Position numbers and translations under genes: made by a program. A stretch of DNA of 64,000 bases, from NCBI GenBank assembly GCA_963974765.1, contig CAXBEI010000002.1:588450-652449 (forward strand), given 5' to 3'. Positions 8,985 to 14,989 of the stretch are shown in pieces; positions within the stretch are counted from its first letter, which is position 1; each line of letters opens with the position of its first letter. This DNA is from an uncultured Sphingorhabdus sp. Its GTDB lineage: Bacteria; Pseudomonadota; Alphaproteobacteria; Sphingomonadales; Sphingomonadaceae. A model generated the notes under the pieces. The model had not been told where the DNA came from and did not search any database. It saw nothing but the letters and a program-made list of their open reading frames with translations.

Positions 8985-9340
8985 ACCAGAGGGTCGGCCA
9001 GCCGCGGCATTTATGTCGAGGAAAGTCCGGGCTCCACGATTAAAAGGTGCCGGATAACGTCCGGCGGGGGCAACCCTAGGGAAAGTGCAACAGAAAGCAG
9101 GTCGCGACGACTTCGGTCACGTGACAATGAAAGGGTGCGGTAAGAGCGCACCGCGGGACTGGCAACAGGCCTGGCATGGTAAACCCCACCTGGAGCAAAA
9201 CCAAATAGGGGCGGCATATGGCTTTTTCGGCTTGCTGCCCGGGTTGGTTGCTTGAGCCACGCAGCAATGCATGGCCTAGATGAATGGCTGGCTATTTCGC
9301 TTCGGCGGATGGACAGAACCCGGCTTACAGACCCTCTGGT
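8985..9340 (+). ncRNA. rnpB: RNase P RNA, bacterial type A
   Basis: Conserved GAGGAAAGTCCGGGCTCC, GGAAAGTGCAACAGAAA, GGTAAACCCCAC..GAGCAA and ACAGAACCCGGCTTA; terminal ACCAGAGGGTC pairs with GACCCTCTGGT. Confidence 0.96.
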
Positions 9341-9389
9341 ATTATCTTTGCGGTGGAACTCGCCGGGTTCCTCTGTTAGAATAGAGACT

Positions 9390-9926
9390 ATGCCAAAAGC
9401 AAAACGATCAGATAACTGGGGTTTCCCGAGATGGGGAAGCTACGAAAGCTCGCGCGAAACACAGCAGGTCAAGATTTGTGACCGGCACGGATGCGACGAA
9501 GCGGGCAGCTGTCCTGCGCCCAAATCCCCCAATAGTCCGGAACGCTGGCATTTCTGCCAGACTCACGCGGCCGAATATAACCGGGGCTGGGACTATTTCG
9601 AAGGCCTCGACAAGGAAGAGCGCAAGAAGCGCGAAGCCGACGAGCAACGCGATGCCAATGCCTATCAGGAAGCGGCGCATTACAGCTGGATGGGTTCCGG
9701 AGACGGCAGCCGTTCGCGCGACGAAATGACCGCGCTGGAAATTTTCGACCTGACGCCCGACGTTGAATTTGACACGGTGAAAAAGGCATGGCGGACGATG
9801 GCCAAGGAATATCATCCCGATGTCAATCCGGGCGATGCCGAGGCGGCCAAGAAATTCCAGGCGGCCCAGGCGGCTTATGATGTGTTGCGGATCGCCGAAG
9901 AACGGCGGGTCTGGAAACCGATTTAG
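9390..9926 (+). CDS. J-domain (DnaJ type III) protein with C-terminal J domain
   Basis: C-terminal VKKAWRTMAKEYHPD...KKFQAAQAAYDVL; Cys/His-rich N-terminus. Confidence 0.88.
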   Translation: MPKAKRSDNWGFPRWGSYESSRETQQVKICDRHGCDEAGSCPAPKSPNSPERWHFCQTHAAEYNRGWDYFEGLDKEERKKREADEQRDANAYQEAAHYSWMGSGDGSRSRDEMTALEIFDLTPDVEFDTVKKAWRTMAKEYHPDVNPGDAEAAKKFQAAQAAYDVLRIAEERRVWKPI

Positions 9927-10076: not shown

Positions 10077-10487
10077 CTAGTTGCTCTGCAACCGCGACGC
10101 GGTCTGTTGAATAAGCGCGATCATATTCGGAATGCCCTGGGTGCGGTTTGAACTCAGCTGGTTTTTCAGATCAAAAGGCTCGAGCACGGCAGCAATATCG
10201 GTGCCTGTGATCTGCTCGGCTGCCTGATCCTGTACCGTTTCCAGCACCAGCGCGATAATGCCCTTGGTGATCGCAGCATTGCTGTCGGCCAGAAAATGCA
10301 GGCGACCGTCATCCAGTTGCGTCGGATAGACCCAGACCGAGGCAGAGCATCCGCGCACCAGCGTCGCATCGGTTTTCAGCGCGTCCGGCATCGGATCAAG
10401 CTCTTTGCCCAGATCGATCAGCAGCCGGTAGCGGTCATCGGGTTCGAGAAATTCATATTCTTCGATCAGTTCGTCAATTTTGCTCAT
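10077..10487 (-). CDS. sufE: SufE family Fe-S cluster assembly sulfur acceptor
   Basis: DRYRLLIDLGK, VRGCSASVW (conserved Cys), ADSNAAITKG, LSSNRTQG. Confidence 0.9.
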   Translation of the reverse strand: MSKIDELIEEYEFLEPDDRYRLLIDLGKELDPMPDALKTDATLVRGCSASVWVYPTQLDDGRLHFLADSNAAITKGIIALVLETVQDQAAEQITGTDIAAVLEPFDLKNQLSSNRTQGIPNMIALIQQTASRLQSN

Positions 10488-10539
10488 GGGCAGGGCGGTT
10501 AGCAGGGCTTTGTTGAAAGGTCATCTGTTTAAAAGAAAT

Positions 10540-10612
10540 CCGTTCGCCCTGAGCCTGTCGAAGGGTTGGTTGCGCGCAATGATCGGCATTTCGACAGGCC
10601 CGGCACGAACGG
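10540..10612. repeat. REP/MITE-like palindromic element, intergenic copy
   Basis: CCGTTCGCCCTGAGCCTGTCGAAGG...TTTCGACAGGCCCGGCACGAACGG; its left arm is nearly identical to the element inside trmD. Confidence 0.8.
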
Positions 10613-10619
10613 CGCGTGA

Positions 10620-10853
10620 CTAAAGTTCGACGCCCGCCGCAATCGCTTCCAGTTTCCGAATACGCTCTTTGAGATCCGCCACCTCGATCCGAGATGTGGC
10701 GGTCGGCGGATTATCTTCGCGCCGCTGCTCGATCTCGCGGGATTTGAGGGCGATCCAGTCGCGCCAACCCCGTAGGGTCACGAGTGCGACCACCGTCAAT
10801 CCAATCAGCGAAAAAGCCGCGGTGATCATATAAAAAGCAGGTTCTTGCATCAT
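10620..10853 (-). CDS. Small single-TM coiled-coil protein, PspB-like paralogue 5
   Basis: N-terminal TM segment and C-terminal DLKERIRKLEAIAAG. Confidence 0.8.
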   Translation of the reverse strand: MMQEPAFYMITAAFSLIGLTVVALVTLRGWRDWIALKSREIEQRREDNPPTATSRIEVADLKERIRKLEAIAAGVEL

Positions 10854-10880
10854 GCTTGTCCTTCCACTTTCTGGACCGGC

Positions 10881-11141
10881 TTAGCGGTCGCGCAATTTTT
10901 CGATCTCGTTTTCCAGTTCCCGGGCACCACGATCGTCGGTGGCGATTTTCTCGAGCACGGCGACGCGTTCTTTGAGATATTTTACTTCTTCCTGAAGGCG
11001 GTCAGAATCCCGATTCTGCGCGGCAATCTCATTGCCGTGCTGATCTTCGATAATTCCATTTTGCGCCCGGTAACGGGTGCTGAGCACCTTCCCGATTGTG
11101 ACAACGATGATGATGGCTACAACCATTTCAAACGGATTCAT
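10881..11141 (-). CDS. Small single-TM coiled-coil protein, PspB-like paralogue 4
   Basis: TM segment and EEVKYLKERVAVLEKIATD...LENEIEKLRDR. Confidence 0.85.
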   Translation of the reverse strand: MNPFEMVVAIIIVVTIGKVLSTRYRAQNGIIEDQHGNEIAAQNRDSDRLQEEVKYLKERVAVLEKIATDDRGARELENEIEKLRDR

Positions 11142-11173
11142 CTAGATATTCCCTCCAGGCTTCGCGGACCCAA

Positions 11174-11428
11174 TCAACGGTCGCGCAATTGTTCGATTTC
11201 GCTTTCCAGTTGCCGTGTGCTGTGACCATCGGTTGTGATCTTTTCCAGCACCGCGACTCGGTCCTTGAGATATTTCATCTCTTCACGCATCCGTTCCGCA
11301 TCGGCGTCATGGGTTGCGGGAAATTCTCCGCGCATCTTGATCAGCTTTCTTTGATGACCTGTCCATATTGCGAACCCGGCAACGGCAAAGGCTCCGAACG
11401 GGATGAGTAGCGCGATTATGCCTTCCAT
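11174..11428 (-). CDS. Small single-TM coiled-coil protein, PspB-like paralogue 3
   Basis: TM segment and EEMKYLKDRVAVLEKITTD...LESEIEQLRDR. Confidence 0.85.
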   Translation of the reverse strand: MEGIIALLIPFGAFAVAGFAIWTGHQRKLIKMRGEFPATHDADAERMREEMKYLKDRVAVLEKITTDGHSTRQLESEIEQLRDR

Positions 11429-11440
11429 GATTGTGTCCCC

Positions 11441-11770
11441 TTAATTCGCGCGCTTGTCGCGCAGCTGTTCGATTTCCTGCGTAAGCCTATGGCTGTCATC
11501 AGTGACAATCCGTTCGACATTGGCGAGCCGGTCTTTGACAGATCCTAACTCGGCGCGCAGTTCGGCGTTCTCGTTGGTCAGCAATTTGACGCGTTCGACC
11601 GCTTCCTGATCGGTTTTGGGATAGACGGACTTGCCCCACTGGTTTTCCAAGGGATAGCCGTTCTTGATCCGCATCCAGGTGGTGACGACCCATCCGGCGA
11701 CTGTAATCGCTGCTACAGTGGCGATTATCGGAGCCAGCTCGGTGATCATGGCGATCTTTTCCGGATCCAT
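11441..11770 (-). CDS. Small single-TM coiled-coil protein, PspB-like paralogue 2
   Basis: TM segment, WMRIKNGYPLENQWG, KDRLANVERIVTD...LTQEIEQLR; start overlaps the upstream stop. Confidence 0.85.
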   Translation of the reverse strand: MDPEKIAMITELAPIIATVAAITVAGWVVTTWMRIKNGYPLENQWGKSVYPKTDQEAVERVKLLTNENAELRAELGSVKDRLANVERIVTDDSHRLTQEIEQLRDKRAN

Positions 11771-12069
11771 CAGTTCTTCTCCCTCAGTGCTTCGATTTCG
11801 TCCGCGGTACGTTTGGCGGGATCGGTGGCGATCCGCTCGAGCACTTGCAGGCGTTCCTGCAGGCGGTCGATCTTGCCGACCAGTTCTTCATTCTCACTGG
11901 AAAGCAGTTCTATTTTCCGCTGCTCGTCCGGGCTGGTCTTGGAGGATTTTCCGCCCCATTCGTCTTCCAGCTCATAGCCATGTTTGGCTCGGATCCAGTT
12001 GTTGATGATCCATCCTCCGTAGCTGACGGCGATGATGGCGATAACAAATTCGGGGCCTCCGAAATCCAT
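11770..12069 (-). CDS. Small single-TM coiled-coil protein, PspB-like paralogue 1
   Basis: TM segment, WIRAKHGYELEDEWG, ERLQVLERIATD...DEIEALR. Confidence 0.85.
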   Translation of the reverse strand: MDFGGPEFVIAIIAVSYGGWIINNWIRAKHGYELEDEWGGKSSKTSPDEQRKIELLSSENEELVGKIDRLQERLQVLERIATDPAKRTADEIEALREKN

Positions 12070-12092: not shown

Positions 12093-12476
12093 TTAGCGCA
12101 GATTTTCTATTTCGTTGGACAACGTCGTGTTCTTGCTGGTGTAGTAAAGCTCCATATCGGCCAGCTTGCGATCGATTTCCCGGAAGCGTGATTTGATATC
12201 CCGCGTTGTGCGGCGCGGTGACTGGCGCACGCCTTGCCAGAATTTGGTATCCTCCGGATCGCTCAGATACATGCCGATCGGTTTGGGCTCGGAAATTTTG
12301 GCCGCGATCCAATAGGCTATCAGCGTCCAGGGGAAGGCAAATGTTACCGTCGCGATGATGGCTGCCAGCCGAACCCAGGCTACATTGATCCCGGTATAAT
12401 CAGCGATCCCGGCACAGACCCCGCTCCATTTTGCGCGTTGCTTGTCGAGATAGAATTTGGTGCGTGAGGAGCTCAT
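12093..12476 (-). CDS. pspC: Envelope stress response membrane protein PspC
   Basis: FYLDKQRAKWSGVCAGIADY (PspC domain), one TM segment, C-terminal DRKLADMELYYTS. Confidence 0.93.
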   Translation of the reverse strand: MSSSRTKFYLDKQRAKWSGVCAGIADYTGINVAWVRLAAIIATVTFAFPWTLIAYWIAAKISEPKPIGMYLSDPEDTKFWQGVRQSPRRTTRDIKSRFREIDRKLADMELYYTSKNTTLSNEIENLR

Positions 12477-12781
12477 GAGGGATGCCTTTCTTTCTTCAGA
12501 AGCTCGTCAAAATTTTCGAGCGATGGGGCGGGGTCAGTCGACGGGCTTGGCAGTCCGGACTGACGCCAGTCCGGATTGTCAGCAGCCATGATGCGTTCAA
12601 TGGTTTCCATCCGGTCATCCAGTCGACGCGCCATATGGTGCAATTCTTCCAGCAGATTTTCATCTTCGTTGGTGATCGTCGCGGCGGTTTTCCATTTCGT
12701 GACATAATGAAATATCAACCAGGGTAGACCGATGAACAGGGTTCCCATTACGATGGGAATGATGATGAGTTCTTCCTGCAT
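12473..12781 (-). CDS. pspB: Envelope stress response membrane protein PspB
   Basis: LFIGLPWLIFHYVTKWK and RRLDDRMETIERIMAADNPDWR; lies between pspA and pspC. Confidence 0.92.
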   Translation of the reverse strand: MQEELIIIPIVMGTLFIGLPWLIFHYVTKWKTAATITNEDENLLEELHHMARRLDDRMETIERIMAADNPDWRQSGLPSPSTDPAPSLENFDELLKKERHPS

Positions 12782-13455
12782 TATGCGTCACCTTTTTTCA
12801 TAGCTGCCTTCATGGCTTCGAGTTCTTCATCAACCTTGTCGCTGGATTCCAGCGCGGCGATCTGGTTTTCCAGGCTCTGCGGCTCTCCGCCCATGCCCAT
12901 CGAGTCGGCGCGACCTTCGGCGAAATCGACTTGCCGTTCGAGATATTCGAACCGCGAGAAGGCATCGTGCACCTTTTCGCCATTGTACATTTCGCGCAAT
13001 TTCACGCGATTTTCAGCACTTTCGAGACGATTGACCAGGCTGCTCTGACGCGAGCGGGCTTCCTGCAATTTCTTCTGCAGTTTTGCGATGTCACCTTCAG
13101 ACGCCCGAAGCGTGTCATCCAGAACCTTGATTTCCGCTTTTAGCTCGTCGGCCATGTCGGCCGCCTTGCGCTTCTCTACCAGAGCCGCCTTGGCGAGGTC
13201 TTCCCGATCCTTGGAAAGGGCCAGCTGGGCTTTTTCGCTCCAGTCTTCGGTCAGATGATCAAGCTTGTCGATATGACGACGCATTTCCTTCTGGTCGGCA
13301 ATCGTGCGAGCTGCAGAGGCGCGCACCTCGACCAGGGTCTCTTCCATTTCTAGAATGATCATGCGGATCATTTTGGAAGGGTCCTGGGCCTTGTCCAGCA
13401 TGTCGGTAACGTTGGCGGCGATGATGTCGCGCGTTCTTGAAAAAATACCTGCCAT
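12781..13455 (-). CDS. pspA: Phage shock protein PspA
   Basis: MAGIFSRTRDIIAANVTDMLDKAQDPSKMIRMIILEMEETLVEVR followed by a long coiled coil; a GGAG SD precedes this start. Confidence 0.95.
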   Translation of the reverse strand: MAGIFSRTRDIIAANVTDMLDKAQDPSKMIRMIILEMEETLVEVRASAARTIADQKEMRRHIDKLDHLTEDWSEKAQLALSKDREDLAKAALVEKRKAADMADELKAEIKVLDDTLRASEGDIAKLQKKLQEARSRQSSLVNRLESAENRVKLREMYNGEKVHDAFSRFEYLERQVDFAEGRADSMGMGGEPQSLENQIAALESSDKVDEELEAMKAAMKKGDA

Positions 13456-13604: not shown

Positions 13605-13781
13605 TCATGCTCGATAACCTAAGTTAACGAAAACGACAGCGGGGGAATCGTTCTGGGTTTTGGCCATCGTGCCTTCGGCCTGTGCCGGTCCGACAGCGCT
13701 GATCAAAATCGTCACGCCAAAAAGCAGGATCGAGATGATTGCGGAAATGTCGATGCGGCTCAATTTGTTCAGTGCTGGCAT
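13605..13781 (-). CDS. 58-aa small protein with signal-peptide-like N-terminus, probable first gene of the psp operon (absent from the ORF track)
   Basis: Hand translation MPALNKLSRIDISAIISILLFGVTILISAVGPAQAEGTMAKTQNDSPAVVFVNLGYRA*; GGAG SD 6 nt before ATG; directly downstream of the sigma-54 promoter. Confidence 0.7.
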   Translation of the reverse strand: MPALNKLSRIDISAIISILLFGVTILISAVGPAQAEGTMAKTQNDSPAVVFVNLGYRA

Positions 13782-13825: not shown

Positions 13826-13841
13826 TGCAGAACTCGTGCCA
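13826..13841 (-). promoter_or_regulatory. Sigma-54 -24/-12 promoter of the psp operon
   Basis: Minus strand TGGCACGAGTTCTGCA; GG and GC are separated by exactly 10 nt. Confidence 0.85.
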
Positions 13842-13861: not shown

Positions 13862-13914
13862 TATATGGAAATACTGAATTTCCCGGCATGTTGCATATAG
13901 TATTAATTGCTATT

Positions 13915-13932
13915 TAGTGGGATTTTGCACTA
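13915..13932. promoter_or_regulatory. Putative PspF upstream activating sequence
   Basis: Palindrome TAGTG-N8-CACTA about 75-90 bp upstream of the -24 element. Confidence 0.45.
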
Positions 13933-13942
13933 TATGTTGGCC

Positions 13943-14989
13943 ATGGAACGCGAAAGTCAATTTGTCGGGGAATCGGGCGCTTTTCTCGATGCAGTAGAAA
14001 AAGCCAGCCGGGCGGCGCAATTGCACCGTCCGGTCCTTGTAGTCGGAGAACGCGGGACCGGCAAGGAACTCATCGCAGAGCGGCTTCATCGGCTCAGCCT
14101 CCGTTGGGACGGTCCGTTCATAACGCTCAATTGTGCAGCCATGCCCGAGACGCTGATCGAAGCGGAATTATTCGGCCACGAAGCCGGTGCCTTCACCGGT
14201 GCAACGAAGGCGCGGGTAGGGCGGTTCGAGGAAGCCGACGGCGGCACATTATTTCTCGACGAACTCGGGACATTGTCGACCGGCGCGCAGGAGCGACTGT
14301 TGAGAGCGGTCGAATATGGCGAAATCACCAGGATCGGATCCTCGCGGCCGCAGCGGGTCGATGTTCGGATTGTCGCCGCGACCAACGCCGACCTGCCGAA
14401 AATGGCAGCAGAAAACAGATTTCGCGCCGACTTGCTCGACCGACTTTCCTTCGAAGTGGTCACGTTGCCGCCGTTGCGCGTTCGCGAAGGCGATATCCCC
14501 GTGCTGACAGATTATTTCGGCCGACGCATGGCGGCGGAACTGGATTGGCCATCATGGCCCGGCTTTGGCCGGCTCGCTTCAGAAGCGCTCAATCGTCACG
14601 ACTGGCCGGGCAATGTCCGGGAATTGCGCAATGTGATCGAGCGCGCGGTCTATCAATGGAATGACCACAGCAGGCCGGTCGACCATGTCGTGTTCGATCC
14701 TTTTGAATCGCCCTGGAAACCTCGGGAAACAAAACCCCAGCAGGAAGCCGAGCCGGATGCCCAGTCGGCAGCAGAAGCCTCGCCAGCGCCCGCTGCACCC
14801 GCTTCGTCCGAACCTGCGTTCCAGGATGTCGACGATATGAAAGCGGCGGTCGAAGCCTTCGAGAAACGGATATTGGAAGCTGCCTTGGCCAAATCGCGCT
14901 ACAATCAGCGGCAGACGGCCAAGGCATTGAACCTGACCTATGATCAGTTGCGCCATTCGCTGAAAAGGCATGATCTGCTCGGAACATGA
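13943..14989 (+). CDS. pspF: Phage shock operon sigma-54 activator PspF
   Basis: Walker A GERGTGKE, GAFTGA loop, GGTLFLDE, WPGNVRELRN, C-terminal Fis-type HTH; no N-terminal sensor domain; divergent from pspA. Confidence 0.95.
   Translation: MERESQFVGESGAFLDAVEKASRAAQLHRPVLVVGERGTGKELIAERLHRLSLRWDGPFITLNCAAMPETLIEAELFGHEAGAFTGATKARVGRFEEADGGTLFLDELGTLSTGAQERLLRAVEYGEITRIGSSRPQRVDVRIVAATNADLPKMAAENRFRADLLDRLSFEVVTLPPLRVREGDIPVLTDYFGRRMAAELDWPSWPGFGRLASEALNRHDWPGNVRELRNVIERAVYQWNDHSRPVDHVVFDPFESPWKPRETKPQQEAEPDAQSAAEASPAPAAPASSEPAFQDVDDMKAAVEAFEKRILEAALAKSRYNQRQTAKALNLTYDQLRHSLKRHDLLGT

Follow-up and report, generated by a model that had tools for sequence, protein, structure and literature searches.

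A conserved, ordered array of PspB- and PspC-tail-like genes between pspC and sufE in sphingomonads

The window analyzed here is a 64,000-nucleotide (nt) stretch from an uncultured Sphingorhabdus species (Alphaproteobacteria; Sphingomonadaceae; contig CAXBEI010000002.1, positions 588,450 to 652,449), in which pspF lies divergent from a run of co-oriented genes: pspA, pspB, pspC, five small genes that we term P1 to P5, and sufE (Table 1). All four psp genes exceed the curated cut-offs of their families, with PspF matching the Sigma54_activat, AAA lid and HTH_8 domains, and PspC combining its eponymous domain with a C-terminal zipper tail (...RKLADMELYYTS..LSNEIENLR). The five small genes had been picked out by a reading of the bare sequence (hereafter the original prediction) as consecutive, co-oriented open reading frames (ORFs) of 77–109 amino acids (aa) with short or overlapping spacing. 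Their coordinates and gaps bear this out: the intervals along the run are −1 nt (pspA/pspB), −4 (pspB/pspC), 23 (pspC/P1), −1 (P1/P2), 12 (P2/P3), 32 (P3/P4) and 27 (P4/P5), and each array gene starts at an ATG preceded by a GGAG-like Shine–Dalgarno (SD) site.

Table 1. Coordinates of the features at the psp locus of the window and of related array genes in other loci.
Feature	Coordinates	Strand	Remarks
pspF	13907..14989	+	sigma-54 enhancer-binding activator; divergent from operon; TIGR02974 485.6 bits (cut-off 443.6)
Sigma-54-type promoter-like element TGGCACGAGTTCTGC (−24/−12)	13827..13841	−	1 mismatch to TGGCAC-N5-TTGC
58-aa ORF	13605..13781	−	signal-peptide-like N-terminus (…ISAVGPAQA/EG…); between sigma-54-like promoter and pspA
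pspA	12781..13455	−	224 aa; TIGR02977 276 bits (cut-off 243)
pspB	12473..12781	−	PF06667 92.6 bits; TIGR02976 93.8 bits
pspC	12093..12476	−	TIGR02978 119 bits (cut-off 104); PF04024
P1	11770..12069	−	99 aa; PspB/PspC-tail-like, single-pass; 19-row clade; dN/dS 0.05–0.07
P2	11441..11770	−	109 aa; start overlaps P1 stop; 20-row clade, support 99
P3	11174..11428	−	84 aa; long-branch; 3-row clade limited to same genus; dN/dS 0.02–0.03
P4	10881..11141	−	86 aa (MNPFEMVVAIII...); 24-row clade, support 97
P5	10620..10853	−	77 aa, ending ...RIEVADLKERIRKLEAIAAGVEL; 19-row clade, support 99; dN/dS 0.007–0.03
Hairpin (CCGUUCGUGCCGGGCCUGUCGAA…UUCGACAGGCUCAGGGCGAACGG) followed by AUUUCUUUU	10531..10612	−	GC-rich, long, imperfect; in P5–sufE gap, directly after P5 stop
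sufE	10077..10487	−	downstream of P5, gap 132 nt
Middle-type genes, other loci (examples)	L009:5481-5747; L013:5317-5592; L015:4916-5179; L018:6144-6410	− (L009)	orthogroup missing from the window
Solo/paired homologues, other loci	L031:5896-6168; L028:5977-6213; L120-L127		…ERV(E/Q/R)(V/I)LE(K/R)IVTD(E/S/K)…; not beside psp genes

When compared with their orthologues from two other species of the genus, P1–P5 display dN/dS values of 0.007–0.20 at a dS of about 0.7–1.2, and in this respect they are indistinguishable from pspB (0.02–0.06) and pspC (0.02–0.03). Purifying selection on each of the five is strong. P2 is 94–99% identical to proteins from Parasphingorhabdus and Sphingorhabdus, and its homologues in the database number at least 7995, all of them labelled ‘hypothetical’ and none with a Pfam domain. 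A profile built from 56 diverse family members and run against 1.84 billion representatives recovered 3656 clusters (50% identity) at E ≤ 1e-3 and 899 at E ≤ 1e-10, with nearly all matches being 77–115 aa long. Outside the psp operon we found no further copy of the family in this genome. One might argue that the ORFs are spurious or decaying, with their likeness to PspB and PspC being a low-complexity coiled-coil artefact, given that every library match of the window’s five falls below the curated thresholds. Conservation refutes this proposal, to which we accord a negligible probability: it runs up against the low dN/dS, the thousands of homologues, a core Arg and Glu that are invariant in 56 of the 56 diverse members, and the SD site ahead of every ORF. 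The pattern as a whole goes far beyond chance. We accordingly regard P1–P5 as very probably genuine genes of a PspB/PspC-tail family.

At the sequence level, the motif (K/Q)(E/D)R(V/L/I)xx(L/V)ExI occurs in all five array proteins and a (A/T/V)TD...EIExLR tail follows it in P1–P4, P5 being devoid of the latter. Both elements had been recognized in the original prediction, with a spacer of 3–6 residues between TD and EIE; the motifs hold, but the spacer is in fact of 7–9 residues. Likewise, the predicted signature common to P1 and P2, WxRxKxGYxLExxWG, is present in both, and across the P2 orthogroup the juxtamembrane stretch GW..TTW.RIKNGYPLE..WG is invariant. The core itself, R-hydrophobic-x-x-hydrophobic-E-x-I, is common to the array proteins, PspB (DDRMETIERI in the window) and the PspC tail. 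Column statistics of the family alignment establish its heptad register: the a/d positions are hydrophobic in 100% of the sequences at residues 78, 82 and 85 (P2 numbering), and the two invariant residues, five apart, occupy position g (Arg81) and position e (Glu86). In parallel leucine zippers, g–e′ pairs connect the helices by salt bridges; we therefore infer that R(g)/E(e) constitutes a pairing interface, which PspB would share (R-M-E-T-I-E) and PspC would preserve conservatively (K-L-A-D-M-E). Beyond the TD and the variable linker lies a second short amphipathic segment (L96, I100, L103; the EIExLR portion), which P5 lacks.

At the other end, each protein has a single hydrophobic N-terminal segment (19-mer mean Kyte–Doolittle hydropathy 1.6–2.3) with 0–1 Lys/Arg before it and 2–4 after it. 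These signals, seen in five out of five, agree with the one N-terminal transmembrane (TM) helix per protein that had been proposed from the outset, and they predict an N-out/C-in topology as for PspB. An AlphaFold2 (AF2) model of P2 features a helix at 3–36, a 16-residue loop and a single 55-residue helix at 53–108 (pLDDT 85.7). A Foldseek search with this model returned no match, a single long helix being uninformative for fold searches, and sequence-profile searches of the PDB recovered only weak coiled-coil or TM-plus-helix look-alikes (the KcsA C-terminus, HA2 and GCN4; best E 0.002).

To which known families do these proteins belong? None of P1–P5 reaches a curated Pfam or NCBIfam threshold: P1 and P4 score 11.5 and 12.0 bits on PF06667 (cut-off 25.6) and 14.9 and 12.9 bits on TIGR02976 (cut-off 51.7), and P3 scores 13.5 bits on NF006993 (cut-off 90). 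P2 matches positions 39–121 of the PspC model TIGR02978 (E 1e-5), i.e., the TM segment and tail without the N-terminal PspC domain, and that domain (PF04024) has no match to any of the five at E ≤ 1. With alignments drawn from 20 related loci (107 array proteins, 21 PspB and 21 PspC), hhalign relates the family to PspC with 94.8% probability (E 4.9e-8), the match being confined to a 38-column C-terminal tail (...DRRLAdvE.yyTS.n.rLa.EIE.LR), and to PspB with 87.4% (E 3.7e-6); the claimed likeness to both C-termini thus stands. Similarly, the top Pfam family for the 56-member alignment is PspB, with PF06667 matching 8 of the 56 at E ≤ 0.01 (best 3.3e-8), and for solo relatives from other bacterial classes PspB or the PspC tail is the top match in nearly all cases (best on TIGR02976, 40.7 bits, E 2.2e-10). 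Only PspB and the C-terminal portion of PspC come up repeatedly, both among the paralogues and among their distant relatives. The generic coiled-coil families ZapB, bZIP, SlyX, DivIC and FtsL were considered as candidates and rejected as compositional matches, all of them being below cut-off and inconsistent between paralogues.

The array proteins resemble PspB, as known from Escherichia coli and Yersinia enterocolitica (PF06667, TIGR02976), in their size of about 75–100 aa, one N-terminal TM helix with predicted N-out/C-in orientation, cytoplasmic helix core and encoding within a psp operon, but differ from it in the additional TD...EIExLR tail of P1–P4 and in the GY(P/E)LE..WG juxtamembrane insert of P1 and P2. 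Their best profile match, EIExLR included, is to the C-terminal leucine-zipper domain of PspC; unlike PspC, they have no N-terminal PspC domain, and PspA binding, known for the PspC tail, would be a putative property of the array proteins. The PspC tail has itself been described as a divergent PspB domain by Ravi et al. (PMC11237479). P1–P5 are, in our view, most aptly regarded as natural ‘TM + PspC-tail’ modules.

The gene order argues for the inclusion of these modules in the psp operon. The arrangement pspF<->pspA-pspB-pspC-array-sufE recurs in 100 of 100 related loci, comprising 20 of 20 from other Sphingomonadaceae genera and 80 of 80 more that were fetched with the P2-orthogroup profile from Parasphingorhabdus, Sphingorhabdus, Blastomonas, Sphingomonas, Allosphingosinicella, Sphingosinicella, Sphingopyxis, Novosphingobium and Aquisediminimonas. 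The first set has three to seven array genes between pspC and sufE. Among the 73 complete loci of the second, the array most often has five genes (31 loci), followed by six (18), four (17), seven (4), three (2) and two (1). This synteny, together with the co-occurrence with pspB described below, upholds the earlier proposal that the array extends the psp operon, and the linkage to pspABC and copy-number variation that a family profile had been expected to expose are indeed seen, with two to seven copies per sphingomonad locus. In the pspF–pspA intergenic region, upstream of a 58-aa ORF and pspA, the element TGGCACGAGTTCTGC may act as a working sigma-54 promoter, from which P1–P5 would be transcribed along with pspABC under PspF. 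At the other end, the hairpin and AUUUCUUUU between P5 and sufE probably mark the operon’s end or terminator. No second copy of a 16-mer from the hairpin arm was found within the window at up to two mismatches, leaving a repeated palindromic element unconfirmed. Overall, we consider it likely that P1–P5 belong to the psp operon.

The constancy of sufE as a neighbor raises a different option, namely that the array serves SufE in Fe-S cluster assembly or cysteine desulfuration rather than the Psp system. Indeed, sufE adjoins the array in all complete loci, including those of sister families with just one or two copies. Nevertheless, we reject this option as highly improbable on multiple grounds: (i) by homology the array proteins group with PspB and the PspC tail and not with any Suf component; (ii) the pspC–P1 gap is 23 nt, as against 132 nt with a strong hairpin and U-run between P5 and sufE; (iii) RNA-seq tables of Zymomonas mobilis show a decrease in sufE (ZMO1067) alongside an increase in pspABC; (iv) solo copies elsewhere are not beside sufE.

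A maximum-likelihood tree of 113 family members resolves position-specific orthogroups common to several genera. The P1 type is always the first gene after pspC and the P5 type (support 99) always the last. The P2 type (support 99) is found in every locus and is the most conserved of the orthogroups, and the P4 type (support 97) includes solo copies from outside Sphingomonadaceae. The P3 type sits on a long branch and is confined to this genus. A further, middle-type orthogroup (…AEKAAQYA…LEQRVRVLERI(V/I)TDKG…QIEDLRDKPLN), whose members mostly end in ‘...DLRDKPLN’, corresponds to the gene adjoining pspC in the sister families. Since it is present in a congener and most genera and yet absent from the window, its distribution indicates that this genome has lost one member. 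The window thus differs from most genera in having no ‘KPLN-tail’ gene and in having a genus-specific P3. As the orthogroups are position-specific across genera, the array is not a product of recent or hypervariable duplication, and a recent tandem duplication was ruled out on the same basis; its phylogeny marks it as a long-established series of different genes in a fixed order, with members gained and lost in particular lineages. The ‘diversified array’ of the original prediction has to be amended in this respect, for the orthogroups are ancient, ordered and individually conserved and do not make up a cassette that is diversifying rapidly.

The family is nearly universal in Sphingomonadaceae, being present in 184 of 201 sampled genomes, and of the 17 genomes without it 12 also have no pspB. 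In a few psp operons of this family of bacteria there is no array gene or only a P5-like one, and some genomes have an additional, dispersed copy. In sister families within the order, pspC and sufE are separated by one or two copies, and other Alphaproteobacteria and other classes of Pseudomonadota have one to three dispersed genes of 76–99 aa in unrelated neighborhoods, which include positions directly after rpoD and near msrA/GAF genes. The notion of the array as an invention exclusive to Sphingomonadaceae is, in light of these sister-family and solo copies, partly true at most. In a 401-genome sample of the phylum, canonical pspB is encoded by 46 of 48 family-positive genomes as opposed to 22 of 353 family-negative ones; outside Sphingomonadaceae the positive fraction is 29 of 30, against the same 22 of 353. 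Moreover, pspB adjoins pspA in all 16 solo-bearing genomes that were checked. The distribution of the family thus follows that of the Psp system, also where the two are unlinked.

The layout as such has been recorded previously, and the description of it as an ‘undescribed system’ in the original prediction has to be abandoned. For Erythrobacter litoralis, Ravi et al. (mSystems 2024; PMC11237479; text and Table S3) list "PspB duplicates in the operon" in the context of AOL22920.1. The correspondence with the window is gene for gene: a divergent PspF, an ORF marked ‘X’, PspA, PspB, PspC with a PspB-like tail and five ORFs annotated TM/SIG+PspB-like. The two species belong to the same bacterial family in the GTDB sense, and the window array is an orthologous instance of these duplicates. 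The treatment in that work comprises a one-line mention and a table row. Our analysis adds the ordering of the orthogroups, the range of copy numbers, the fact that the PspC tail is the nearer kin, the register of the zipper and its invariant g/e charges, the solo homologues and the near-exclusive co-occurrence with pspB. In a full-text literature search, Zymomonas transcriptomics was the only work on psp in sphingomonads to turn up. In those data, stress from ethanol, furfural or xylose raises the expression of pspABC (ZMO1063-1065) and of ZMO1062, a small ORF upstream of them, and lowers that of sufE (ZMO1067). ZMO1066, which lies between pspC and sufE, is absent from the differential-expression lists, and this gives no evidence either way on co-induction.

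What might the array proteins do? The combinatorial control of PspA (ESCRT-III) recruitment put forward in the original prediction is plausible and in essence coincides with the mechanism that we consider most likely, which is as follows. P1–P5 would be made together with PspABC from a PspF-dependent promoter, each as a PspB-type, single-pass inner-membrane protein with a short acidic N-terminus in the periplasm, one TM helix and a long cytoplasmic zipper helix. Through R(g)/E(e), the zippers might join the array proteins to one another, to PspB and to the PspC tail, and/or the array proteins might present PspC-type tails that dock PspA at the membrane. Such extra and differentiated docking sites could then set the threshold and gain of the PspA–PspF switch, in which sequestration of PspA releases PspF. 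Experiments on PspC in other organisms are consistent with such a role for a tail of this type: in the ON state, PspA is bound by the C-terminal domain of Yersinia PspC (PMC5596341); E. coli PspC requires its leucine zipper to interact with PspA, and a PspC40-119 fragment consisting of the TM segment and tail binds PspA and induces psp (PMC3068692). The choice of partners and the effect on PspA that we assign to the array proteins are extrapolated from these likenesses. Several points weigh against this proposal and its premises: (i) the array proteins score only 11.5–25 bits, against PspB/PspC cut-offs of 25.6–104; (ii) compositional matches come easily to short helical zippers, and ZapB, bZIP, FtsL and SlyX score similarly; (iii) the sigma-54 site is a match to consensus only and the terminator a match by folding only, with a whole-segment z-score of just −1.55; (iv) linkage to the operon is not universal, as the solo homologues lie in unrelated neighborhoods; (v) the test of co-occurrence with pspB (Fisher p 6e-41) ignores shared ancestry, and the positives fall in about seven families. 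With these points taken into account, we hold the reading as a whole to be somewhat more probable than not, and our preference for a recruiter and tuner of PspA over the two rivals considered next is a tentative one, held at a little less than even confidence.

The first rival assigns the array proteins the opposite sign, as a brake or decoy: their PspB-like zippers would mainly keep the PspC tail, or one another, locked in the OFF state or else vie with PspA for that tail, lowering basal activity or resetting the system after induction. The zipper core that the array shares with PspB lends itself to such a role. Further, as summarized in PMC5596341, which cites Flores-Kim and Darwin (2016), the PspC tail of Yersinia in the OFF state pairs with the cytoplasmic domain of PspB and these contacts silence the response, and an array located inside the induced operon would furnish negative feedback. 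Nonetheless, we deem a brake unlikely: P1–P4 are closer to the PspC tail, i.e., the PspA-binding element, than to PspB (the 94.8% against 87.4% given above), and the analogous TM-plus-tail fragment of E. coli PspC activates.

The second rival dispenses with PspA altogether, proposing a hetero-oligomeric zipper bundle that acts as an effector by stabilizing the stressed membrane or blocking leaky complexes, in the manner of PspD, PspG or the action of PspBC against mislocalized secretins. Among small membrane proteins that are encoded or induced with a PspA-family protein and act as its anchor or as an effector, functional analogues of the array are PspD and PspG of enterobacteria and LiaI of Bacillus subtilis, a small TM protein encoded in the lia operon (PMC11237479). 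PspBC have effector roles in Yersinia (PMC5596341). The array genes hold the downstream ‘effector’ slot of the operon, their ordered, non-redundant orthogroups suggest a fixed multi-subunit assembly, and the invariant GYPLE..WG specific to P2 points past a generic zipper function. Yet nearly all solo homologues occur in genomes with pspA and pspB, which fits dependence on Psp partners, and the likeness to the small proteins just named is a functional analogy only: no sequence relationship to LiaI, PspD or PspG was detected, and the number of TM segments and the fold differ. A PspA-independent bundle is, in our estimate, distinctly unlikely.

Returning to the favored recruitment of PspA, the conserved order of the array and the antiquity of its orthogroups point to the array proteins being non-redundant subunits of a single membrane complex rather than interchangeable spares. 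In its most elaborate and speculative form, to which we would assign only a small probability, the P1, P2, middle, P4 and P5 types might form, with PspB and PspC, one stoichiometric, hetero-oligomeric ‘Psp receptor’ platform that is absent from the enterobacterial model, with its ordered PspC-type tails templating or nucleating the PspA polymer at damaged membrane and the P2 GYPLE..WG motif serving as a lipid or stress sensor.

PspA is the bacterial representative of the ESCRT-III proteins, and, to our knowledge, its recruitment to and release from the membrane are understood only for the enterobacterial PspB–PspC pair. Nearly all sphingomonads, a group that comprises Zymomonas, used in industrial ethanol production, and many degraders of pollutants, carry two to seven extra PspB/PspC-tail modules. 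If these modules bind PspA or the tails of PspBC, they would amount to a natural experiment in which the PspA docking element has been multiplied and diversified, and would also offer a handle for dissecting what the PspC tail recognizes. On the practical side, the family has no model of its own and its members are annotated merely as ‘hypothetical protein’; a Pfam or NCBIfam entry would name several thousand of these (the 3656 clusters at 50% identity).

Certain other features of the locus deserve mention. The longest ORF of pspA, of 275 aa from an ATG at 13608, appears to be over-extended: the profile match begins only at its residue 54, and the true start is likely the MAGIFSR ATG at 13455, with a GGAG SD 9 nt upstream. 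In one related genome (L012:782-1441, minus strand) a second pspA-like gene is found about 3 kb past sufE, besides the operon copy. The slot of the 58-aa ORF is occupied in seven of eight other loci checked by a small hydrophobic ORF of 48–110 aa whose sequence diverges fast. Its position is that of ‘X’ in the E. litoralis architecture (PMC11237479) and of ZMO1062 in Z. mobilis, which is co-induced with pspABC. Beyond sufE, the window has an ORF at 9252-9926 (+) that may encode a J-domain-like protein. The order of psp array, sufE and J-domain-like protein is mirrored in Z. mobilis (ZMO1065 pspC, ZMO1066, ZMO1067 sufE, ZMO1069 DnaJ-domain protein); hence, synteny reaches past the operon. Finally, two large proteins, P0198 (860 aa) and P0239 (608 aa), contain 11–12 tandem repeats (…ERV(D/E)Y(L/V)E..LGDSADKHA.E(L/V).AL(K/R).AH.KH…) that match the zipper core of the family, and these could be either a convergent coiled-coil likeness or repeat proteins built from the same module.

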